Below are positions 1-57,649 of a stretch of 64,000 bases of DNA, in pieces. The stretch is taken from positions 1 through 64,000 of the IMG/VR virus record IMGVR_UViG_3300027917_000024; one strand, given 5' to 3'. Under the pieces are notes generated by a model, which had not been told where the DNA came from, did no database searches, and was given only the letters and a program-made list of their open reading frames with translations. Position 1 is the first letter of the stretch; each line of letters begins with the position of its first letter. Source of the stretch: a virus. The position numbers were made by a program, and so were the translations under genes.

Positions 1-22
1 AGTGTTACCTTCTTTGCCATAG

Positions 23-220
23 TTAGCCTCCCATAACTATTTCTAGATTATCTTCATCCTTCCTACTCTTCCTCCCTGCCCGATTCTCCTTGACCTCAAC
101 TAAGAGATCAATAGTTTCCTCATACCCACACCTACACGTCCAGAATTCCTTACCCTTGCGTTCGCCCCTGTAGCCAACGCTTCTAAACTTCATACTCTTA
201 CCACACTCATTACACATCAT
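23..220 (-). CDS. small zinc-ribbon-like hypothetical protein
   Basis: CxxC ... CxC motifs; GGAGG RBS upstream; directly downstream of the promoter at 271-299. Confidence 0.55.
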   Translation of the reverse strand: MMCNECGKSMKFRSVGYRGERKGKEFWTCRCGYEETIDLLVEVKENRAGRKSRKDEDNLEIVMGG

Positions 221-270
221 TTGTCTTGCCTCCCTTGTGATATTGAATAGTATATTTACTTCTAATACTA

Positions 271-299
271 TTTATACCACAGGGTTTGCATTTTGTCAA
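271..299 (-). promoter_or_regulatory. sigma70-type promoter with extended -10
   Basis: minus strand TTGACA-aaatgcaaaccctgtgg(17)-TATAAA, with A-tracts upstream; same architecture at 6671, 8599 and 10119. Confidence 0.8.
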
Positions 300-385
300 C
301 CTCTTTTTTCAAATTTTTTCATATTTTTTAGGGGCTTATAATAGAACAAGATACTCACTAGTATAACGGCCTGTAACTAGTCTCC

Positions 386-918
386 CTTTCACTTCGATTC
401 GGCTCTGCTCTCTTCCAGTTCTTATCATATCACTTCCTTTCTGCTCATCTCCTCTCCACTTCCCCTCTGCTCCGGTCTTATCATCTCCGTTTCGGTTCTC
501 TCCCCCTCCGTTCGGATCTCTTCCATCTCAACTCTGATCTTGTCTTCTCCAACTCAGCTCATCTCACTCGGATCTGTTCAGTACCCTTCTGTTCACTTCC
601 AGTTCATCACGATTCCCTTCCTTTCTGTTCCTCTCCAACTCCCATCGTATCGGATCTAATCTTCTCTGTTCGCTTCCGGTTCTCCTCATGTCGGATCCGT
701 CCCGTTCAGTTCCTTCTCCAATCGTATCGGATCTAATCTTCTCTTGTGATTTCCTGTTCCTTTCCTTTCGGGTCTGGTCAGCTCCATTTCTTTTCAGTAC
801 AAAAAACTACGACTCATACGTTTCCGAATCATTTCTTCTTATCTCTTGTCACATCCTTTTCCCCTCAAATCTTTTCTTTTCTACTCTCCTCTTCTCCCGT
901 TCTGGTCATTTCCCCTTC
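386..918 (-). repeat. pentamer-periodic non-coding array, (GA-NNN)n on the minus strand; candidate guide-RNA array
   Basis: plus strand parses as ctttc acttc gattc ggctc tgctc tcttc c.agttc ttatc atatc acttc ...; about 80 units in 386-800 and about 18 in 826-918; TC nearly invariant, other three positions variable; intergenic. Confidence 0.9.
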
Positions 919-1471
919 AACCCATAAAATCCTTCACATAAGATTTTCTGTTCTCGTTGAAGATCTTGAGTACATGCACGATATACTCTGCAGCCTCTTC
1001 CTTTGTGTAATGAAGATCTTTCTCTAAACGCTCTTGTAGTTGCAGTGCAGTTAGGTAGAGTAAGTCACCGGAGACCCATTGATTAGCTAGAATACCAAGG
1101 AACAACTGGAAGTCAGGAGGTATAGGATTAGAGACGTGATCATATGGACTCGCCTCGGTTACACTCCGCTTATGCACATCTTCTCTCCAGGTATTGAAGA
1201 GAGAAGAAGAACAACCTGCATTGATAGCTAGCTCCTTCCGGTACCTCTCACCTACCTCACCGGGAAGCAGGGCAAGTTTACAGAGGTACCGGCTAAGATC
1301 ATCACTCCATACCAGTTGAGGGCAATGTGTTACACCAGGATAGAGTCGAGAGGAAGCAGCGCAAGGAGCTTTCATACAACAATAGCCACACCCTACACAC
1401 TCAGCTGTCTGTATCTGACTTTCCGTTTGTATTATTGCATCCATTACTTTTCGACTCATACCCCTCACCAT
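917..1471 (-). CDS. Cys-rich putative Fe-S/Zn-binding protein (CxxCGxCC, YkgJ-like) lying between the two arrays
   Basis: CVGCGYCCMKAPC plus further cysteines (HCPQL, YLCKL, AGCSS). Confidence 0.6.
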   Translation of the reverse strand: MVRGMSRKVMDAIIQTESQIQTAECVGCGYCCMKAPCAASSRLYPGVTHCPQLVWSDDLSRYLCKLALLPGEVGERYRKELAINAGCSSSLFNTWREDVHKRSVTEASPYDHVSNPIPPDFQLFLGILANQWVSGDLLYLTALQLQERLEKDLHYTKEEAAEYIVHVLKIFNENRKSYVKDFMG

Positions 1472-1597
1472 TCACATCACATCAGTTCCTTGTCTGATCG
1501 CCTCCTCTCAGATCTGTTCCCTTTCTCCTCATTTCTCATCTCTTCTAAGCTCCTCTTTTCCTTTACTTTTCCCTTCTGATCGCATCAAATCCGGTTC
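1469..1597 (-). repeat. second pentamer-periodic (GA-NNN)n array
   Basis: plus strand cattc acatc acatc agttc c.ttgtc tgatc gcctc ctctc agatc tgttc c.ctttc tcctc atttc tcatc tcttc ... aaatc c.ggttc; about 25 units filling the whole intergenic gap. Confidence 0.88.
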
Positions 1598-1787
1598 AGA
1601 CCACCACTCGTATGCTCTTTTCCGGTTCGTTCCTTGTCTCTAGAGGAGTACAAAAGTAAATATCATTACAATGTCTGCACTCATAAGTTGGTTCGCATTG
1701 AAGTCCTTCGTAAGCTGGATCATCTTCCTTCTCTTCTTTAGTCAATAAATGCACAAACAATCCACAGTAAACACATCTCCATGCCAT
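1596..1787 (-). CDS. small Cys-rich hypothetical protein
   Basis: CVYC, CRHC motifs; tightly packed in the minus-strand operon. Confidence 0.5.
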   Translation of the reverse strand: MAWRCVYCGLFVHLLTKEEKEDDPAYEGLQCEPTYECRHCNDIYFCTPLETRNEPEKSIRVVV

Positions 1788-1788
1788 A

Positions 1789-2085
1789 TTATTTCCCCTT
1801 CTTCTTTTTCCTTGTGGCTATTTTGAGAGCAACATAATCATCATACAACGAATCCGACTGAGAAGATGGCCCAGGATCCTTCTTGAGCATTACAGAAAGA
1901 AGCCTCTTCCACTCTTCGGGCGCACACTTCTGACACCTTTTCAAATTCCTGAGCTCAATGTACGCTTTATGTTGCTTGCTGCTCTCCCCTTTATATAGCC
2001 AAGCATCAAACCATTCAGGATGCCCAAGAGAAACGTAGGTCTTCCTATCACACCCACCACAGTACCCACCAATAATAGCACTCAT
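1789..2085 (-). CDS. hypothetical Zn-binding protein
   Basis: CGGC and CQKC motifs; ATG at 2085 preferred because the track start (2175) overlaps the RAMP gene. Confidence 0.5.
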   Translation of the reverse strand: MSAIIGGYCGGCDRKTYVSLGHPEWFDAWLYKGESSKQHKAYIELRNLKRCQKCAPEEWKRLLSVMLKKDPGPSSQSDSLYDDYVALKIATRKKKKGK

Positions 2086-2090
2086 AACCT

Positions 2091-2780
2091 TCAATTTCCC
2101 TTCTTCTTCATCTTCATCTCTGCACGAGGCTCGAACTTGAGTGTATCGAACCTTCCCCATCCACCACTTGCCCACTGACTCATACCAAACTTGCGCCCAT
2201 AGCTAAAGATCGTCTCTAGCATTTCGATGTTCAGTTTACTTGTGGGGAGCAGCTCGACGGTGAAGTCCATCTTTGTTCCAGGCGGGAAGTAATCGCTACG
2301 GGTAAGAGCTGTCCTGGGACCTTGCGGAGTCATGGCACGAAGAGGCCTTTCGTAGACCGGCAACCTTCCTCCATTCTCTTTCAGGATACTAGGATCGTAC
2401 TGGAACCTGAGTTTCCTCGGCCAAACGAAAATGTACCGGTCAATCGTATTCTTGTATGCAGTCACCTTATCCACATCCTTGGTTTCCATGAGTACAGCCA
2501 AAGAGCTCTTCATGAACCCCTTTACCCAATAGTCGTACACATAGAAGCCATCCTTGTCCCTGAGAAAGGTTGTCCAGCCCCTTTGCTCAACTGCATCAAG
2601 AGCCTCGTATGCTTCTGTAACTTCCTTGGCAACCTCTTCCTCACTCTTCTTGCCTTTCTTGATCGCACGAGAGGCAATGTAGTCTTCATAGAGCTTCGGA
2701 TCTGCAGGACTCGTTCCCAAGCAGTTCTCTGTCCACTCAATACTGACATCGATCATCTGTCCATCGTCCATCATCTTCAT
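2091..2780 (-). CDS. stand-alone Cas7-group/RAMP-fold protein (Csm3/Csf2-like)
   Basis: RAMP motifs in the correct order: N-terminal strand + ENCLGTSP, YVYDYWVKGFMKS (cf. IPGSSLKG), RSDYFPPGTKMDFTV (cf. E.vp.Gt.f.f.i), C-terminal Gly-rich loop GMSQWASGGWGRF; AAGGAG RBS. Confidence 0.8.
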   Translation of the reverse strand: MKMMDDGQMIDVSIEWTENCLGTSPADPKLYEDYIASRAIKKGKKSEEEVAKEVTEAYEALDAVEQRGWTTFLRDKDGFYVYDYWVKGFMKSSLAVLMETKDVDKVTAYKNTIDRYIFVWPRKLRFQYDPSILKENGGRLPVYERPLRAMTPQGPRTALTRSDYFPPGTKMDFTVELLPTSKLNIEMLETIFSYGRKFGMSQWASGGWGRFDTLKFEPRAEMKMKKKGN

Positions 2781-2802
2781 TGTACTTTCTCCTTTCTATT
2801 CT

Positions 2803-3150
2803 TTACCAATTAACACCACCATAAAGAAACTCCTGTAGCTCTCCATCGTCCATTGCAGCGTACTCTTCGAACGTCTTTGTGACAGAACCAATGGTGATCG
2901 TTTGGTTGTCACAGTTGAGCTCAATAACCGGATGCTCATTGTCAGGCATGTAGCTACAGATCCCGAATCCGGTCTCTTCCGCTTCCTGGCCTTTAACCAT
3001 CTCACAAAAGACGATCCTTGTGAGGTAGGCATCGTCATCCCATCGCCATTTCTTCTTGAGCGCATCTCGGACGATGAAAGGTAGATGCCTTCCACCCCAA
3101 TGTGTGTACAGGTAGACTCCAGAAATCAAAACATTTGCTCTGTCACCCAT
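2803..3150 (-). CDS. phage hypothetical protein
   Basis: ORF with GGAG RBS; YLYTHWGG motif. Confidence 0.6.
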   Translation of the reverse strand: MGDRANVLISGVYLYTHWGGRHLPFIVRDALKKKWRWDDDAYLTRIVFCEMVKGQEAEETGFGICSYMPDNEHPVIELNCDNQTITIGSVTKTFEEYAAMDDGELQEFLYGGVNW

Positions 3151-3330
3151 TACATAATCTCCTTCATTCTTACTTCCTTTCAGTCTGTTAATACGTCAAC
3201 AATTCCATCACACTCATCACAATACCAAATCGAAAATACATGATCTACTATTTTTCTTTCTCCTCGTACATTTGTCTTTGCAATACTCACAACGGTTGCC
3301 CGATCCCTACCATTACCACATTCACACCAA

Positions 3331-3600
3331 TCATCTCGATCCTGTACTTGTCTTTTTATTCTTTGTGCTCGCCTCATCCACTTTCTCCTGCATGATAACA
3401 ATAGATGTGAGTTCATACTGTTCTGTAAATTGCCTCCCACAAGAACGGCATCTGACATCTGTTTCAATCCCCTTCTGACTGTCTTGGACGCACTCGCATG
3501 TAAGAGTCCGTTTTCTACAATCACTGAAGGGACAGCACATTCCTTCTTCTTTGACATATCGCTCCACTTCCTCAGCTGTTAGTCTTCTCTCTGTTTGCAT
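3331..3600 (-). CDS. zinc-ribbon hypothetical protein
   Basis: CPFSDC and CRSC motifs. Confidence 0.5.
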   Translation of the reverse strand: MQTERRLTAEEVERYVKEEGMCCPFSDCRKRTLTCECVQDSQKGIETDVRCRSCGRQFTEQYELTSIVIMQEKVDEASTKNKKTSTGSR

Positions 3601-3657
3601 TCCATATCCTTTATTTTTGAAAGTACAGTGCGTTCGGATCCTTCTTAACAGCCCAAG

Positions 3658-4215
3658 TCATCCCCCCGCATCTGGATAGCCCCCTGATGGAAAGGTAATG
3701 GTTCCATAGGAGTCCCGATGATTAGCTTCCAGTTCTTGACGAAATATGTAAGCATCCCCACAAGCTGCAGAACCAAGCTTACTTTCAAATTGTGGGCAGG
3801 TATCATGCATCACAATAAGTCCATGAGGTTTCAATATACAGTCCACGTTCCAAAAATCTTTCCTTACCTGTTCGTGACTATGACAACCATCTATCAAACA
3901 TACAGCAACAGAAGAAACTGATTGCTCCTCAAGATATGAAAAGAAATCATCAGATCTTCCTGTATACACTCGGCTTGCACCTGTTAAATCTTCCATCCAT
4001 CTTGCAGGAGCCGTATCACAATGGTAAGCAGTAGCCCTCCTTCTCTCAGCGAGTTCAGAGATTAATTTGGAAGAATACGGCCCCATCCCAATCTCGATTA
4101 TACTTCCTCCACGAAGCATACCAAGCATCCAATCAAAAGTGATTACAACCGCATCGCATCCAGTAAATCTACCGGCTCTTGCTCTGTTATATAATTCATC
4201 CGATCCGTTCGTCAC
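3658..4215 (-). CDS. class I SAM-dependent methyltransferase (Methyltransf_24-like)
   Basis: IIEIGMG motif I; LIDGCHSHE...D...LKPHGLIVMHDT. Confidence 0.8.
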   Translation of the reverse strand: MTNGSDELYNRARAGRFTGCDAVVITFDWMLGMLRGGSIIEIGMGPYSSKLISELAERRRATAYHCDTAPARWMEDLTGASRVYTGRSDDFFSYLEEQSVSSVAVCLIDGCHSHEQVRKDFWNVDCILKPHGLIVMHDTCPQFESKLGSAACGDAYIFRQELEANHRDSYGTITFPSGGYPDAGG

Positions 4216-4230
4216 TGCTTTCTCCTTATT

Positions 4231-4506
4231 CTACCTCTCCCGTATGTGATGTTCTATGACCTTCCAGCCGAACGACTTCCACCTTTCATCAGTTGGCGTC
4301 CATCCTTTATCCCCAACATGGATAACAGAAATAACATGAGCCTCATCTTTGACAGTACGTCTTCTGTAATCAAGAGTAGCCACAATCCTATTAACGTCAT
4401 CTTGACTGTCTGGATAGCAAGAATCATATCTGAGCATATCAATCGGGAAAGAAGAGACAAACCCATCAGCTCTTACCTTCATCGTATGTACATATATCTT
4501 CGCCAT
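4231..4506 (-). CDS. phage hypothetical protein
   Basis: GGAG RBS; FPIDMLRYDSCYP motif. Confidence 0.55.
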   Translation of the reverse strand: MAKIYVHTMKVRADGFVSSFPIDMLRYDSCYPDSQDDVNRIVATLDYRRRTVKDEAHVISVIHVGDKGWTPTDERWKSFGWKVIEHHIRER

Positions 4507-4606
4507 TGTAATCTCCTAAGCGAGCCATTCTTCAGCGCCAAGATCTTCCATTTCCTGCTTTGCTTTTTCCTTGAACCACTTCTCATCATTGTTCATTTTG
4601 ATCATC

Positions 4607-4891
4607 CTATTCCTCCTTATATTGTTCTGCTGGAAATACTATCGGAGGAACAAGTTCTTTGAGGTCGTCATGGAAATGATCTCCCCGCCAGGAATTCTCC
4701 ATGAACTTTATATTCCCTTTTGCAAGTAAATCAAGATCAAAAACTGCTGTACAGACCTCGTCCTCCACATCGAACTGAATAGCTAACATGGTCTTTCCCT
4801 TACACGCCGGTTCGTCATCTTGAAATATAGAGACAAAAAAAGGCGTTCCACCAACTCCATTTCTATGATAACTACAATCTAAAATCTTCAT
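4607..4891 (-). CDS. phage hypothetical protein
   Basis: GGAGG RBS; HRNGVGGTPF motif; operon packing. Confidence 0.55.
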   Translation of the reverse strand: MKILDCSYHRNGVGGTPFFVSIFQDDEPACKGKTMLAIQFDVEDEVCTAVFDLDLLAKGNIKFMENSWRGDHFHDDLKELVPPIVFPAEQYKEE

Positions 4892-4904
4892 TCTTTTCCT
4901 CCAT

Positions 4905-5153
4905 TCAATCTCCTGATAAAAATGAGAAGTAATATCTTGGCCAGTGCTGAAAAGCCAAGGTACCCCTTACTCCATCCGATTTTCTGGTTACATGCACAAA
5001 GGGAGCTAGGAAGGAATGTACTGTAAAATCATCCCGCAGCTCTTGAGTATCCCACACCTTCCCATAAACCTCTTCCAAATCTGCCCTTTCTGCTCTTGCC
5101 GAATTGATACGCTCAGTTGCCAACCTACGCAGTTCTTCAGTTGGATCTTGCAT
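4905..5153 (-). CDS. phage hypothetical protein, paralog of 9631-9885
   Basis: YGKVWDTQEL...RKSDGVRGTLAFQHWPRYYFSF aligns with YGEVWNTSEL...RKADGKKGTLLYQNFPRFYFSF. Confidence 0.7.
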   Translation of the reverse strand: MQDPTEELRRLATERINSARAERADLEEVYGKVWDTQELRDDFTVHSFLAPFVHVTRKSDGVRGTLAFQHWPRYYFSFLSGD

Positions 5154-5164
5154 GGCATCCTCCT

Positions 5165-5419
5165 TTAATAATAGGTCTCCTCATAAATCGTCTCACCATC
5201 CTTACTGATCCTAAGAGCAGCGTAGTCATCATCGGCCATTGTCACTGGCTTTTCCACATCGACCTCGCACCGGTAAACGTCATCTGCATGCCCACCAAAG
5301 CTGTAGACGATCACTGCTCCATCATACGCTACCCCTTTGAATGTGAAGAAGTACTTGTAGTAGTTCTTAAAGTGCAGCTGAACCTTCCCGTACTTCTCTA
5401 ACGCCTCTTCTTTTGTCAC
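5165..5419 (-). CDS. phage hypothetical protein
   Basis: start overlaps the stop of the HD gene. Confidence 0.55.
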   Translation of the reverse strand: MTKEEALEKYGKVQLHFKNYYKYFFTFKGVAYDGAVIVYSFGGHADDVYRCEVDVEKPVTMADDDYAALRISKDGETIYEETYY

Positions 5420-5847
5420 TACGCACTCCTTTCTTGCAGGTACTCAAGAGACTTCCGGTACCTCTTCTCCAGCCCCTTGTGCTCTTTAGGGAGAGGACGT
5501 TCGGGCCTGGGCATGTTATCTTCCAGGTCAGCAATCTTGATTCGAACCGCTACAGGATCGGAAGCAACCCTCTCTAAGTAATCCATGTACTTCTCTCCAT
5601 GCATCCGAGTAAGGATGTCTACAAGTTCCACCACTCTTTCAGGAAACTCGTAGGACTTGAGGTAAGCAAGAGAGAGAATGGTATCTTCAACAGTATCGTG
5701 GAGGACTGCAGCTGCCTGTTCAATAGGATCAGTAAACTTGAGCATGACTCGTAAGGGATGCAAGATATACGGCGTACCATTCTTGTCTACCTGTCCCTCA
5801 TGAAAGGCAGTGGCAACCCCAATCGCCTCTTCGACAACATGTTTCAT
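5419..5847 (-). CDS. HD-domain hydrolase, small RelA/SpoT-hydrolase-like
   Basis: H.GQ.DK.G.PYILHPLRV, AAVLHDTVEDT, IKIADLEDN. Confidence 0.8.
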   Translation of the reverse strand: MKHVVEEAIGVATAFHEGQVDKNGTPYILHPLRVMLKFTDPIEQAAAVLHDTVEDTILSLAYLKSYEFPERVVELVDILTRMHGEKYMDYLERVASDPVAVRIKIADLEDNMPRPERPLPKEHKGLEKRYRKSLEYLQERSA

Positions 5848-5848
5848 T

Positions 5849-6367
5849 TCAGTTGATCTCCTTCGAAGTATTTCTTACTAGGTTATATTCAGCTTCCCAA
5901 AGACCATCGAATATCCTACCTTCAATATCATGCCCTAGTTCATATGGTTCACCTATAATCTTTGGAGTTCCCTCATCAGACGTATCAATTTCCTGTGTAA
6001 TAACCAACCGCATATAAGGAGCAGCAATAGAGATATTGATCTGCTCCGTTCGCCCAGGTATGAACTTGACTCCAATATCATTCGCTAAATCCGCATCATC
6101 CTTATTATCGGATCGAGCCATCCACGCCTCGGTGATTAGAATAACTGCATATGCCTTATGTTCTTTGGCCAACTTCTTGAATTCCTCGATACATGCCGCT
6201 TTAGAATCCGCATCTTCAAATCTCAGTATAGTACCTTTCATTCCTTCTTCGGTGAAAAGAAATCCAACAGGAGCCACATATCCATCACGTTTAAGGAGTA
6301 TCTTAGCAATTTCAAGAAGATGATAGGCCGTATCCTTGATTTGATTTTCGTCTAGAATCTTTGCCAT
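5849..6367 (-). CDS. hypothetical protein
   Basis: 172 aa ORF in a tight operon. Confidence 0.6.
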   Translation of the reverse strand: MAKILDENQIKDTAYHLLEIAKILLKRDGYVAPVGFLFTEEGMKGTILRFEDADSKAACIEEFKKLAKEHKAYAVILITEAWMARSDNKDDADLANDIGVKFIPGRTEQINISIAAPYMRLVITQEIDTSDEGTPKIIGEPYELGHDIEGRIFDGLWEAEYNLVRNTSKEIN

Positions 6368-6369
6368 TT

Positions 6370-6633
6370 TTATTCCTTTCCTAGGTTTATGGGATGTAAT
6401 ACTTCATTAGCTTTCTGCCAACATGTATCCTCCAAGTAATCCAAAAATTCACATACTTCTTCATCTGTCATTCCCTCTACATACTCAATATTAAAGCGGG
6501 GGGGAGTACCAGGATAGTCATAAGATCTTGGCTCACCTGGATCAAATGTGGCAAATACGACAATATCACTCTCAGCTGAATCTCTCGGATGGGTTGCTCT
6601 ACATACAAACCTCCTCAATTGCTTCTCCATCAA
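6370..6633 (-). CDS. hypothetical protein
   Basis: first gene after the 6671 promoter; GGAGG RBS. Confidence 0.55.
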   Translation of the reverse strand: MMEKQLRRFVCRATHPRDSAESDIVVFATFDPGEPRSYDYPGTPPRFNIEYVEGMTDEEVCEFLDYLEDTCWQKANEVLHPINLGKE

Positions 6634-6670
6634 TCTACCTCCCTACAGTGGTTTCCTATTCCTCGGCTCA

Positions 6671-6699
6671 TTTCTACCACAAGAGTCTCACATTGTCAA
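6671..6699 (-). promoter_or_regulatory. sigma70-type promoter; probably drives the operon that ends in the RAMP gene and arrays
   Basis: TTGACA-atgtgagactcttgtgg(17)-TAGAAA with A/T tract upstream. Confidence 0.7.
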
Positions 6700-6746
6700 G
6701 AAAAAAGTAAAATTTTTTTAGGCACTTACCCAAACACCGTTCTACC

Positions 6747-7118
6747 TCATGAGTCATAACCCTTGCAATCAAATCGGTCCTTCTCCCATTCCGGCGTCAT
6801 GAATTCCCTACAATCCATAGGCTTTAGCTCGTGGATACCGCATTTCCTTTTCAATTCTCCTCCTTTATCAACGATCTCATATAAAAACGGGCAGTAGGGT
6901 AATTGCTGGCTTTTTCGCCGGGGGTTGTACCATATTTTTCTATAGGCATACTCCCTACCCCTCCGCACGTAGGTTTTAACAAATGCCAGAATATATTGAG
7001 CATCTGCGTCCTTCCATCTTCGAAAATCTTCCTGTGTAATCTCCAGTCCATAGCGAGATCCATAGTAATCACAACAATTGCCGCACTGCTTGCACTTGAA
7101 CTTCTTATTTACAATCAT
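6747..7118 (-). CDS. YkgJ-like Fe-S/Zn-chelating protein
   Basis: FKCKQCGNCC ... CPFL ... CGIHELKPMDCREF. Confidence 0.75.
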   Translation of the reverse strand: MIVNKKFKCKQCGNCCDYYGSRYGLEITQEDFRRWKDADAQYILAFVKTYVRRGREYAYRKIWYNPRRKSQQLPYCPFLYEIVDKGGELKRKCGIHELKPMDCREFMTPEWEKDRFDCKGYDS

Positions 7119-7850: not shown

Positions 7851-8129
7851 TTAATCAATAACGACATACTCCCTCCCTTCACACTTCAGTAGCTTCACCG
7901 TATTCAGGTTTGCATTTCGATAGCTTAGAATTTTACGGTCAAACATGTTAACAAGGTGAGGTTTGCCTTCGGCAGGATTCCGACCGCCATTTGAATACTT
8001 CTTCACACCAGTTCGCCCATTCATTTGGCGAAAGCTCTTGTCCTGCTTTTCAAAGTAGACAGTAAAGAATCGGCCTTTCTGGTTTTCAATTTTACTTCTC
8101 AGTTCACTTCTCTTCAGTGGAATAACCAT
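7851..8129 (-). CDS. small phage beta-barrel (SH3/WYL-like) protein
   Basis: FFTVYFEKQDKSFRQMNGRTGV...FD....YRN pattern. Confidence 0.5.
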   Translation of the reverse strand: MVIPLKRSELRSKIENQKGRFFTVYFEKQDKSFRQMNGRTGVKKYSNGGRNPAEGKPHLVNMFDRKILSYRNANLNTVKLLKCEGREYVVID

Positions 8130-8153
8130 TTCCCTTTCCTTTCCTATTCATTG

Positions 8154-8447
8154 TTACCTTCTACCTGACCTTCCTTTCTTGGCTCGTTTATGTACTCGAT
8201 TATGTTGTGCCTTGGAAATCCTCTTCAAATTACTCTTACGCATATCTGATTTCTTCTTATTCCTATGATGAACAACTTCTCCAGGCTTGGCTCCAGCTTT
8301 TCTTCGATAGTAATGTGCGCTCTTTCCACCCTTCCATGCTCCGTTTTGAGCTCCTGTACGCATTAAACTTTTTTTCTTATCCCTTCTACTCCTATTCCTG
8401 CTGGTATCTCTTGGGCGTGTATTCTTGATTTTGCGTTTTGCCATCAC
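8154..8447 (-). CDS. very basic protein with HNH-like motif
   Basis: GEVVHHRNKKKSDMRKSNL.......HNRVH; K/R-rich. Confidence 0.6.
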   Translation of the reverse strand: MMAKRKIKNTRPRDTSRNRSRRDKKKSLMRTGAQNGAWKGGKSAHYYRRKAGAKPGEVVHHRNKKKSDMRKSNLKRISKAQHNRVHKRAKKGRSGRR

Positions 8448-17749: not shown

Positions 17750-17834
17750 AGCCTAGGGAGAGATTCGAACTCCCGATGGACTTACGTCTGAGGCTTACAA
17801 AACCCCTGCTCTCGACCACTAAAGCGACCTAGGC
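17750..17834 (-). tRNA. tRNA with UGU (Thr) anticodon and a long variable arm
   Basis: perfect GCCUAGG/CCUAGGC acceptor; GGGGU-UUUGUAA-GCCUC arm; V-arm GAC-GUAA-GUC; UUCGAAU. Confidence 0.8.
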
Positions 17835-54819: not shown

Positions 54820-55390
54820 ACCTAGGGGGCAACTAGGAAAGAAAGCGTTACAAAAAAAAAGAGATAAGATACTAGTACGACAGAGAAAGTACAGAGAAGA
54901 AAATAAAGATAAGATACTAGTACGACAGAGAAAGTACTATGAAGAAAATAAAGATGAGATACTAGTACGACAGAGGAAGCGCTATGAAAGGAAGTATAAA
55001 ACTAGCCCAGCATATAGACTCAATTGTAGTATGCGAAGTAATATGTACCAGTCTCTAAAAAAGGGAGGAGGTAAAAGAAACAACCACTGGGAAGATCTCG
55101 TGCCTTATACGCTTGAAGAATTACAACGACACCTAGAATCTAAATTTGATTCCTATATGACTTGGGAAAATTATGGGAGTTACTGGCATGTGGATCATAT
55201 AATTCCATTAGCTAGTTTTACTTTCGAATCTGCTGATGATCCTCAATTTCAATTAGCTTGGGCACTTTCTAATCTACAACCCCTAGAAAGTTCTGAAAAT
55301 ATAGGTAAGGGTGATAGATTTGATCATCCATCTAATAAAAAATTTAAACCTATTCCGAAGGTACTAATTAACAATGATCTACGAACCTAG
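54809..55390 (+). CDS. free-standing HNH endonuclease
   Basis: MTWENYGSYWHVDHIIP...NLQPL...N..KG; N-terminal 45-bp tandem repeats (54871, 54916, 54961). Confidence 0.8.
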   Translation: MLHEPRGQLGKKALQKKRDKILVRQRKYREENKDKILVRQRKYYEENKDEILVRQRKRYERKYKTSPAYRLNCSMRSNMYQSLKKGGGKRNNHWEDLVPYTLEELQRHLESKFDSYMTWENYGSYWHVDHIIPLASFTFESADDPQFQLAWALSNLQPLESSENIGKGDRFDHPSNKKFKPIPKVLINNDLRT

Positions 55391-56408
55391 GGGGCTGCAT
55401 GGCAAAGACAAGAAGGTTATTATCCTCATGCTCGAAGGTGGTATTGGAGATCATCTTCTAGCTACACCTCTTCTTCGTGGCCTCAGAAAAAAGTATCCCA
55501 CCGATCAATGGTATCTCATAATGATTGCGATGTACCATGAAGTCTTTGGTTACGAGGATCCCAAAACTAAAGACGGCAATACTTTGATATGCATGAATCC
55601 GTATATCGATAAGCTCTATTCCATGCGACTACCCTCTCGCTTCTATATGGAATGGGCTCGAAATGCAGATGTAATATATCGGTTAAATCCATATATACTA
55701 TCTCCGCAAAGACTAGGCTCTAACCACTTTGCTGAAACATGGTGTACTATTCATGAAGTTAAAATGGACGCTCTTGTATTGGACTATTATATTACTGAGC
55801 ATGAAGACTTAATGGCAAGAAGACTCTATGAAATGCTCGTAAATCCAGTTATTGTAATCCAACCTTTCGGTGCATATGACCCTATCGACCACATCAAAGC
55901 CACCGAGAATAAAGACTGGTGCGATGACAGGTGGGAGTTTATTATTCAACTTCTCTTGAACAGGGGCTACGATATTATTCAGGTGGGAAAGATAGGAGAG
56001 CGAGTATTTAATGGTGTTCTTTCTTTTGTAGGCCATGCAAACATAAGGGAGACGGCAGCTATTATGAAGTATGCCGAGTACTTCATCAGCATTGATTCTT
56101 TTGTAATGCATATGGCCAAAGCACTAAATAAAATTGGTATTGTATTGTGGGGAAGAACTAATCCCTTCAGAGTTGGTTATATGGAGAACTATAATATTTT
56201 CAAGCTGCATTCGTGTCCTGAGATCTTCTGTGGCCGACCAGAAGGAGCGCTCTTCGATATGGCCTTCGATCAGCCCTACTTTACCCCGTGGCAGTGTCCT
56301 CATAGAGACTGCATGAAGGCAATTACAGTAGCAGATGTAGCTAAAGGGATAGGCTTTATGGAACAAAGACTACAGCTGGATCCTGTTACATATGAGAGGA
56401 AGATGTAA
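55374..56408 (+). CDS. glycosyltransferase family 9 (heptosyltransferase-like)
   Basis: GGIGDHLLATP.LR.L, IQP, KDW...W, IQVG, SIDSF.MH.A.A. Confidence 0.85.
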   Translation: MIYEPRGLHGKDKKVIILMLEGGIGDHLLATPLLRGLRKKYPTDQWYLIMIAMYHEVFGYEDPKTKDGNTLICMNPYIDKLYSMRLPSRFYMEWARNADVIYRLNPYILSPQRLGSNHFAETWCTIHEVKMDALVLDYYITEHEDLMARRLYEMLVNPVIVIQPFGAYDPIDHIKATENKDWCDDRWEFIIQLLLNRGYDIIQVGKIGERVFNGVLSFVGHANIRETAAIMKYAEYFISIDSFVMHMAKALNKIGIVLWGRTNPFRVGYMENYNIFKLHSCPEIFCGRPEGALFDMAFDQPYFTPWQCPHRDCMKAITVADVAKGIGFMEQRLQLDPVTYERKM

Positions 56409-57649
56409 TGGCAGTTCCTAAGAAATACAAAGGGAGGGAAAAAGAATACTATAGAAAGTATTATAAGGAGAACAGGAATAGAATATTAGAACTACAGAGA
56501 AAGAATAGAGAAAAAAATAGGGATAAGATTAGAGATAGACAAAGGAAATACTACAAAAAAAATAAAGATAAGGTGCTCGAAACAAATAAAAGATCTAGGG
56601 AGAAAAGTATAGATAAAAGACTTGAATATGAAAAGAAGTATAGGGAGGAAAACAAAGATAGAATACAAGAATATAAAAAGGAATATGCCAAGAAAAATAA
56701 AGACAGACTGCAAGAATATAAAAAGGAATACTATAAGAAGAACAAAGATACGATAGCAGCCAAGAAGAAAAAGCACAGAGAAAAAAATAAGGATAAGATA
56801 GCAGAAAGTAGTAAGAGATACAGGGAAGAAAATAGGGACGAGATATTAAAGAGGCAAAAACAGTGTAGAGAGAAAAATAGGGATAAAATACTAAAGAGAC
56901 AAAAGGAATATACCGAGAAAAATAAGGACAAAATAAAGGAGTCTCAAAAGAAGTATAGACACCAAAATAAAGCAAAAATAGTAGCTCGACAAAAACAATA
57001 TAGAGAAGAGAACCGGGAGAAAATAAAAGCCGGACGAAAGAGATACTACGAAAAAGAAGAGAACCAGGAGAAAATAAAAGCCGGACGAAAGAGATATTAC
57101 GAAGAGAATAAAGAAAAAATGGCGACTCAACATAAACAGTACTATGAAGAGAACAAAGGCACAATAGCAAAAAAGGCAAAGAAATTTAGAGAAGAAAACA
57201 AGGAGAAAATATCAGAAGGGCAAAGGAAATATTATAAAAAGAATCAGAATGACCCAATGTTTAAGTTGAATGGGGCAATGCGACAAGGAATATATCAGGC
57301 ACTAAAAAGAAATGGAGGAAGTAAAAACGGACGACATTGGGAAGATCTTGTGCCTTATACTCTTGAAGAATTACAACAGCACCTAGAATCTAAATTTGAT
57401 GAAAATATGACTTGGGAAAATTATGGGAGTTATTGGCATCTAGATCATATAATTCCACTAGCCAGTTTTACTTTTCAATCTGCAGACGACCCACAATTTA
57501 AATTAGCTTGGACACTTTCTAATCTACAACCTCTAGAAAGTTCTGAAAATATAGGTAAGGGAAATAGATTTGATCACCCATCCAATAAAAAATTTAAACC
57601 TATTCCAAAAGCTGAAGTGAGCCCCAAAAATTTAGATTGCCTCATCTGA
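56408..57649 (+). CDS. free-standing HNH endonuclease with a long K/R/E/Y repeat N-terminus
   Basis: many approximately 15-aa NKDKI-type repeats; C-terminal HNH domain nearly identical to that of 54809-55390. Confidence 0.8.
   Translation: MAVPKKYKGREKEYYRKYYKENRNRILELQRKNREKNRDKIRDRQRKYYKKNKDKVLETNKRSREKSIDKRLEYEKKYREENKDRIQEYKKEYAKKNKDRLQEYKKEYYKKNKDTIAAKKKKHREKNKDKIAESSKRYREENRDEILKRQKQCREKNRDKILKRQKEYTEKNKDKIKESQKKYRHQNKAKIVARQKQYREENREKIKAGRKRYYEKEENQEKIKAGRKRYYEENKEKMATQHKQYYEENKGTIAKKAKKFREENKEKISEGQRKYYKKNQNDPMFKLNGAMRQGIYQALKRNGGSKNGRHWEDLVPYTLEELQQHLESKFDENMTWENYGSYWHLDHIIPLASFTFQSADDPQFKLAWTLSNLQPLESSENIGKGNRFDHPSNKKFKPIPKAEVSPKNLDCLI

Follow-up and report, generated by a model that had tools for sequence, protein, structure and literature searches.

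The locus presented here raises the question of why a long array of five-nucleotide units is interrupted, at intervals, by one additional base that is always the same. It is located near the start of the window, as we call the whole stretch of DNA that was analyzed (64,000 nt), which belongs to an IMG/VR virus record of 105 kb with 14 tRNAs. Between positions 390 and 918, base identity at lag 5 reached 0.525, against approximately 0.27 at other lags, and the identity peak drifted to 5n+1 at lags 21 and 26. In a sliding lag-5 scan of the whole window only two extended stretches rose more than 3 sd above the mean, namely 376-925 and 1426-1650, together with a single isolated 100-nt window (8101-8200). 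In 390-918 pyrimidines dominate the plus strand, with 212 T and 187 C against 71 A and 59 G. The minus strand carries the genes of the first 28 kb, so that the sense reading of the array is G-A-R-N-N.

The array was parsed by dynamic programming, with only the TC dinucleotide scored and an equal penalty for 4- and 6-nt steps; because the TC anchor alone was scored, the parse is blind to the identity of any inserted base. Positions 388-916 resolved into approximately 105 units, N-T-C-N-N on the plus strand and G-A-R-N-N on the sense (minus) strand, comprising 90 pentamers, 13 hexamers and one tetramer (563-566). The hexamers start at plus coordinates 413, 454, 485, 521, 547, 597, 633, 674, 710, 751, 782, 853 and 894. 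All 13 read N-TCC-NN, which places the extra C at 416, 457, 488, 524, 550, 600, 636, 677, 713, 754, 785, 856 and 897, whereas TCC occurs in only 15 of the 90 pentamers, so that 13 out of 13 would be expected by chance with a probability of about 8e-11. On the sense strand the extra base is a G at the end of the hexamer, just before the next G-A-R. An earlier note, made from the letters of the stretch, had claimed that the phase slips always add a C on the plus strand (G on the sense strand), and the base-blind parse bore this out at each of the 13 clear slips; the spacings that it gave (41, 31, 36, 26, 50, 36, 41, 36, 41, 31) were also recovered. The fourteenth slip that it had listed, at 913, is ambiguous, as it falls in a run of four C beside the stop codon of ORF 917-1471 and its placement is not unique. 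Additionally, the pattern TCC-N3-(TC-N3)x7-TCC occurs five times in the window (at most one mismatch) and not once in 100 shuffles.

The main tract (388-797, minus strand), defined by the lag-5 signal, the parse and the shuffle test, contains 11 blocks of 5-10 units, each ending in an extra-G hexamer. It is followed by a non-periodic break (798-827, minus strand) in which six units have lost the TC anchor; the break by which the earlier note saw a sub-array split off is real. On the sense strand this break holds a weak hairpin and then a U6 run, the MFE fold pairs the stretch, and a terminator scan detected nothing there. The proximal part of the main array (828-916, minus strand) was parsed with an extra G at plus 856 and 897. 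Short non-periodic inserts of approximately 30-40 nt, dividing long arrays into sub-arrays, were seen both in the window (798-827) and in a related locus, L019 (~1900-1940). The parse also revealed two paralogous 8-unit blocks (639-679 and 716-756; region 633-756, minus strand). They follow the hexamers 633-638 and 710-715 and have in common a core of 24 identical nucleotides, placed in register within the block, and their duplication begins, on the plus strand, at a block boundary. A second array (1469-1597, minus strand), recognized by the lag-5 signal and the parse, consists of approximately 25 G-A-R-N-N units with extra-G hexamers. In its sense-strand parse all five hexamers end in G, while the plus-strand parse gives TCC in four of five, the fifth being an edge artefact. 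The window thus carries approximately 130 repeat units in two arrays, neither of which has tails. Beyond the 3' end of the main array lies an ACTAGT...ACTAGT pair (357-381, minus strand), proposed in the earlier note as a hairpin cap; a cap is not supported, as the fold of 300-400(-) is no better than shuffles (MFE -10.4 kcal/mol, shuffle mean -13.2, z = +0.98). A promoter and terminator scan of 200-3000 returned nothing on the sense strand, and no GenBank phage showed DNA similarity to window positions 1-6000.

Four ORFs from the ORF list, all on the minus strand, lie beside or near the arrays. ORF 917-1471, between the two arrays, encodes a 184-aa Cys-rich protein (CxxCxxCC). It was considered as a partner of the array, but its homologues in two other viral contigs (L002, L003) have no arrays nearby, which makes a core role in the system improbable. 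ORF 1596-1787 encodes a 63-aa Cys-rich, zinc-ribbon-like protein with no family match in Pfam or PHROG. ORF 1789-2175, directly downstream of the gene at 2091-2780, encodes a small protein with CxxC...CxxC and a basic tail; it had no Pfam or PHROG match, is not conserved in the related loci L012, L019 and L032, and is a possible candidate for an accessory (vap-like) gene. Small Cys-rich (CxxC...CxxC) ORFs with no family assignment recur around the locus (23-220, 1596-1787, 1789-2175, 3180-3557), and some of them could be DNA-binding accessory proteins.

The fourth, ORF 2091-2780, gives the array its identity. Scanning IMG/VR with the 41-nt block pattern led to 54 loci, and the same array grammar was found in three of them, L012, L019 and L032, with TCC in 10/10, 22/25 and 12/14 of their hexamers, respectively. 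When every ORF of these three loci and the window was compared by all-vs-all blastp, the family of ORF 2091-2780(-) was the only one common to all four. In each of the four the array lies on the sense strand of this gene, either directly downstream or at most ~700 nt upstream. The 229-aa product had no match in Pfam or PHROG. Its AlphaFold (AF2) model (pLDDT 80), however, is that of a stand-alone Cas7/Csm3-like RAMP: Foldseek returned type VII Cas7, Csm3 and Cmr4 (E-value = 6e-7 and probability 1.0 to type VII Cas7 and Csm3), and VIA-align scored Z = 12.9 against Csm3. A C-terminal G-loop, GxxQWxxGGWGRF, was identified, of which W203, G199 and G209 are invariant. A profile search found 2,613 representative clusters at E ≤ 1e-3, and the nearest ESM Atlas clusters are approximately 90-100% viral. 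In close relatives of this phage the Vipr protein is 82-93% identical; a JGI contig (L138) stops 72 nt past the gene. Two top-scoring relatives, P0011 (458 aa) and P0012 (432 aa), show two Vipr-like stretches per polypeptide and may be tandem-fused Vipr proteins. ORF 2091-2780 is the vipr gene of a VIPR system whose guide arrays occupy 388-916 and 1469-1597, where G-A-R stands in the place of G-G-Y. The assignment of the array to VIPR follows from the fact that the one gene common to all loci is a Cas7/Csm3-fold RAMP with a Vipr-like G-loop. It also agrees with the terms in which the earlier note read the array, those of guides and a filament, as VIPR is an RNA-guided system that forms its filament with one protomer per pentamer (10.64898/2026.04.26.720927).

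VIPR is a very recent and minimal RNA-guided DNA-binding system, a CRISPR-related DNA silencer first described in 2026 preprints (10.64898/2026.04.26.720920, 10.64898/2026.04.26.720927). According to the first of these, it combines a stand-alone ancestral RAMP (Vipr) with vrRNAs of 9-16 pentamers; the protein holds a fixed GGY, while pairing with double-stranded DNA is left to the variable NN and follows a rule by which one nucleotide is skipped (10.64898/2026.04.26.720920). Each repeat is bound by one protomer, and the protomers form a helical filament whose turn counts 6 subunits in the binary complex and 5 in the ternary one (10.64898/2026.04.26.720927). The first preprint also lists the alternative repeats NNNGG, YNNNG and NNNNG, names “staggered arrays with overlapping vrRNAs” as a layout (fig. 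S18), and reports sRNA-seq confirmation for the ribozyme-interspersed and single-vrRNA layouts only (10.64898/2026.04.26.720920). A Vipr is expected to be a stand-alone single-RRM RAMP with G-loop and thumb that is related to Cas7, and in the window the fold and the G-loop of ORF 2091-2780 agree with this. Tandem pentanucleotide repeats flank vipr on its own strand, as they do in 157 of the 160 loci of its clade described below. The location is mainly viral or proviral: the window itself belongs to a virus record, and its relatives include 567 or more loci from viral contigs, besides 141 from bacterial genomes and MAGs. The canonical GGY is absent, being G-A-R in the window and G-[C/A/T]-r in the clade; this does not exclude membership, because the preprints accept “related consensus” repeats. 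In place of the 9-16-repeat guides with structured 3' tails that characterize type II, we found blocks of 5-10 units and no tails, a layout that fits the “staggered” architecture rather than type II.

Several published systems come close. The layout of the window and its clade most likely corresponds to the “staggered vrRNA arrays” of 10.64898/2026.04.26.720920, to judge from the legend of its fig. S18. Both have a phage stand-alone Vipr RAMP, long and contiguous tail-less pentamer arrays on the strand of the gene, units whose end marks the start of the next, and one strongly conserved G per pentamer; they differ in the fixed trinucleotide, which is G-A-R in the window. The text of that preprint gives no figures for the delimiter base, the block length or the indel pattern. 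The type II VIPR of Escherichia phage SUSP1 (Vipr, vap1 and four vrRNAs) is also similar in having a phage-borne Cas7-like protein of ~20-25 kDa and a 5-nt code of a fixed trinucleotide plus a variable dinucleotide. Its G-loop, GxGxWRxxxGRF, resembles that of the window, with which it aligns in the C-terminal half of the protein, although the overall similarity is remote (hhalign E-value = 1e-4, probability only 57%). Unlike the window, the parsed SUSP1 sequence shows strict GGYNN units with zero hexamers, and each of its 10-16-repeat guides has its own leader and structured 3' tail. Non-canonical arrays with the trinucleotides GAC/NN, CAC/NN, WGT/NN and TGH/NN have been described in 10.64898/2026.10.21.760802, in which a Vipr-like fold also stands beside 5-nt arrays whose trinucleotide is not GGY; these have about 10 repeats, and the part of that text available to us contains neither G-A-R/NN nor hexamer punctuation. 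Finally, the backbone of type III and VII CRISPR-Cas (Csm3, Cmr4, Cas7) provided the best structural matches (Z 11-13) and likewise forms a filament along a guide RNA with periodic base flipping. The window, in contrast, is devoid of CRISPR repeats, Cas10, Cas5, Cas6 and adaptation genes, and VIPR has a period of 5 nt, not 6 nt, and a non-contiguous guide. A tandem-repeat finder detected no 25-40-nt repeats near the vipr gene and the neighboring ORFs matched no Cas families in Pfam or PHROG; neither the repeat-spacer array nor the multi-subunit effector of class 1 CRISPR-Cas was found. The system as such is already published, and the window is a well-measured example of it, notable for its G-A-R trinucleotide and for the size of its two tail-less arrays.

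The behavior of the extra base was followed across the Vipr clade. A profile scan of viral contigs yielded at least 567 related loci, of which the best 80 were kept, and a second scan of bacterial genomes and MAGs yielded 141, of which 80 were kept; the bacterial-genome matches belong mostly to gut Clostridia and Coriobacteriia, with several environmental phyla. Long 5-nt arrays were present in 79/80 viral and 78/80 bacterial-genome loci, abutting vipr in the viral ones. Read on the sense strand of vipr, conserved anchor and extra base alike are G in nearly all of these arrays, and the typical unit of the clade is G (0.85-0.90) followed by C, A or T and then by three less constrained bases. 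Hexamers far outnumber tetramers, with 932 vs 37 in the viral set and 924 vs 53 in the genome set (1,856 vs 90 in total). At the sixth base of the hexamers, G makes up 91-94% in the viral and 95% in the genome set, compared with just 19-26% at position 5 of the pentamers. Block length between extra Gs has a mean of 6.0 units in the viral set (sd 1.9, n = 842; 74% at 5-7 units) and of 6.2 in the genome set (sd 2.4, n = 807), while geometric, that is random, placement with an equal mean would give an sd of about 5.5. Constraint is stronger in the units that flank the extra G than in internal ones: position 2 is C in 0.93 vs 0.57, position 4 of the junction units is A in 0.55-0.80, position 3 of the following unit is A in 0.70, and it is in this following unit that the anchor is best conserved (G in 0.97). 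The commonest class of junction reads approximately G-C-A-A-n-G | G-A-A, compared with which that of the window, GAR-nn-G | GAR, is plainer. Few slips were seen in the arrays beside more distant Vipr-like genes, and since those arrays and SUSP1 have few or no slips, the punctuation is specific to this Vipr clade. The identity of the residue that follows the G-loop Trp showed a weak and noisy link with the base at position 2 of the repeat.

Closely related arrays are colinear, and most of their differences are point changes. Where indels are well flanked, they amount to whole units (5, 10 or 20 nt) or to one or two whole blocks (21, 36, 62 or 67 nt), the only exception being 1 nt long. Substitution frequencies at unit positions 1 to 5 of near-identical blocks are 0.028, 0.046, 0.041, 0.078 and 0.097. 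The extra G changes at 0.037, as rarely as the fixed positions (0.028-0.046), and positions 4-5 change about twice as often; by these frequencies the fixed trinucleotide comprises positions 1-3, the guide dinucleotide that varies comprises positions 4-5, and the extra G is an element under constraint. A cassette-like shuffling of blocks was also considered and rejected, the exact-match mosaic being mostly point-mutated colinear blocks. No strict ruler of block length can be at work, because unit-level indels change the length freely and blocks of 2 units exist. The earlier note had argued that an insertion of always the same base looks like a delimiter, that it cuts the array into guide-sized blocks, and that random indel bases in homologous arrays would speak against it. 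Instead, homologous arrays share the inserted G, it divides them mostly into 5-7 units, and the comparison of block gain and loss among related phages, for which the note had called, turned up whole units or whole blocks apart from the 1-nt case. These sequence comparisons support the view that the extra base is a delimiter conserved by selection rather than an indel of random origin.

We therefore read the tract as a vrRNA array of a phage VIPR in which the extra G most likely marks where one short guide ends and the next begins along a tail-less array, with a probability of roughly 60%. The array would be read from the minus strand, downstream of the vipr gene at 2091-2780. By analogy with type II VIPR, for which the 2026 preprints have established the mechanism, each G-A-R-N-N pentamer would bind a single Vipr protomer; the protein would hold the fixed G-A-R, the counterpart of the published G-G-Y, and the two variable bases would be presented for gapped pairing with double-stranded DNA. 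The array has no structured 3' tails, and instead the extra G (...NN-GAR becoming ...NN-G-GAR) breaks the 5-nt register every 5-10 units. Since protomers need a 5-nt spacing, a step of 6 nt would be expected to stop the filament or make it start anew. Each block would then be a short guide, that is an RNP segment of about one helical turn (5-7 protomers), and the extra-G junction a probable site of transcript trimming. That each block is a separate guide or filament unit delimited by the extra G is plausible. The stricter proposal, that the single extra G is the only delimiter and ends the filament after about one turn of 5-7 protomers, giving very short tail-less guides, would have slightly less than an even chance. 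Against single-block guides stands the fact that blocks of 5-7 units hold just 10-14 informative bases, below the published guides of 9-16 repeats. If the proposal is true, it would constitute a protein-register mechanism for short guides that has not yet been experimentally described for VIPR. Apart from this, the measurements from approximately 160 loci provide a concrete and testable rule for where guides start and end in an apparently very large Vipr clade.

Searches for natural targets yielded none for any block of the window, which also counts against the reading as guide junctions. When all arrays were compared by gapped k-mers, with five pairing rules, to ~1.2 Mb of loci and the phage genome, the hits stayed at about control level. 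Exact scans of IMG/VR with the NN-x rule gave 30 and 4 unrelated hits for window blocks 4 and 6, close to chance expectation and with no second block matching nearby, whereas a 12-unit pattern spanning a junction had 0 matches. Allowing one mismatch, we searched 2.05 Mb for every block of the window, but this added nothing to the seeded hits. The idea that positions 3-5 are codons was uninformative, the stop triplets being only mildly depleted (215 observed vs 267 expected).

The alternative that survives best is that the array, or several of its blocks, is read through as one long guide or filament, with the extra G, spaced at about one helical turn, forming a bulge that relieves strain or resets the path of the RNA and does not terminate the guide. 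The modal block of 5-6 units does equal the 5-6 subunits per turn of Vipr filaments, and such a reading would avoid the low specificity of single blocks. A correction of register would nevertheless sit poorly with block lengths that range from 4 to 8 and are freely altered by unit indels, and with the handle- or junction-like consensus of the units beside the G; the unmatched 12-unit pattern is weak evidence in the same direction. We consider this explanation unlikely, at a fraction of the weight given to guide junctions. A further possibility is nucleation in the absence of cleavage, where G-G-H recreates G-G-Y and provides a high-affinity start for Vipr assembly, and the weaker G-H units are filled cooperatively. 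The junction G-G-[C/A/T] does resemble the published GGY, and it is the unit after the extra G that has the best conserved anchor. Nothing argues directly against nucleation, which is compatible with block boundaries and hard to tell apart from them by sequence; even so, we regard it as less probable again than read-through.

Much further down, a neutral origin by replication slippage, which could duplicate an anchor G in one simple event (G to GG) and confer no function, is largely refuted by the excess of +1 over -1 slips, the narrow spacing (sd 1.9-2.4), the conservation of the extra G and its specific flanking consensus, and the GG-rich canonical arrays of SUSP1, in which no such slips occur. 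Equally improbable is that the tract is not VIPR at all and is instead a GGA-rich CsrA-type sponge, a TRAP-like tract (GAG plus a 2-3-nt spacer) or a DNA helical-phasing element: 28 GGA motifs in ~530 nt, mixed 5- and 6-nt units reminiscent of TRAP sites, and a mean period of 5.14 nt that when doubled approximates one DNA turn (36/7 x 2 = 10.3 bp) suggest as much, but the array is tightly linked to, and co-oriented with, a Cas7-fold gene in 157 of the 160 loci, its anchor is G plus C, A or T by clade and neither GGA nor GAG, its RNA is ~75% purine and not significantly more structured than shuffles (z = -1.4), and published RNA and structural data cover the family. Rfam matched tRNAs only, and a CsrA/RsmA sponge of the CsrB/RsmZ type, which presents GGA in hairpin loops, is not supported. 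The TRAP-like, CsrA-sponge and helical-phasing ideas were dropped along with that of a Rho-rut site; the Cas7-fold gene is the only shared neighbor.

We also recorded a second class of 5-nt arrays among the loci, with N-G-G-A-N on one strand and few phase slips. These arrays were located in L018 (4001-5100), L020 (6576-7175), L034 (6701-8025), L036 (five arrays, 601-7075), L039 (11426-11800) and L040 (12401-12650). Each adjoins an ORF that weakly matches the profile of the window Vipr (E-value = 3e-4 to 0.7), and the arrays probably represent further VIPR types whose fixed motif resembles GGA. One Oscillospiraceae MAG contig (JAGCAN010000001.1) bears two vipr loci ~48 kb apart (L231 and L235, at ~22-29 kb and 70-77 kb).

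Elsewhere in the window, the 14 tRNA genes are all located on the minus strand between 11252 and 23061. Among the tRNAs, a tRNA-Thr(UGU) of 85 nt at 17750-17834 has a long variable arm. Several tandem repeats at 54855-57103 are rich in purines, measure 45-51 nt in multiples of 3 (TRF scores 130-205) and are probably part of a repeat-containing coding sequence on the plus strand.
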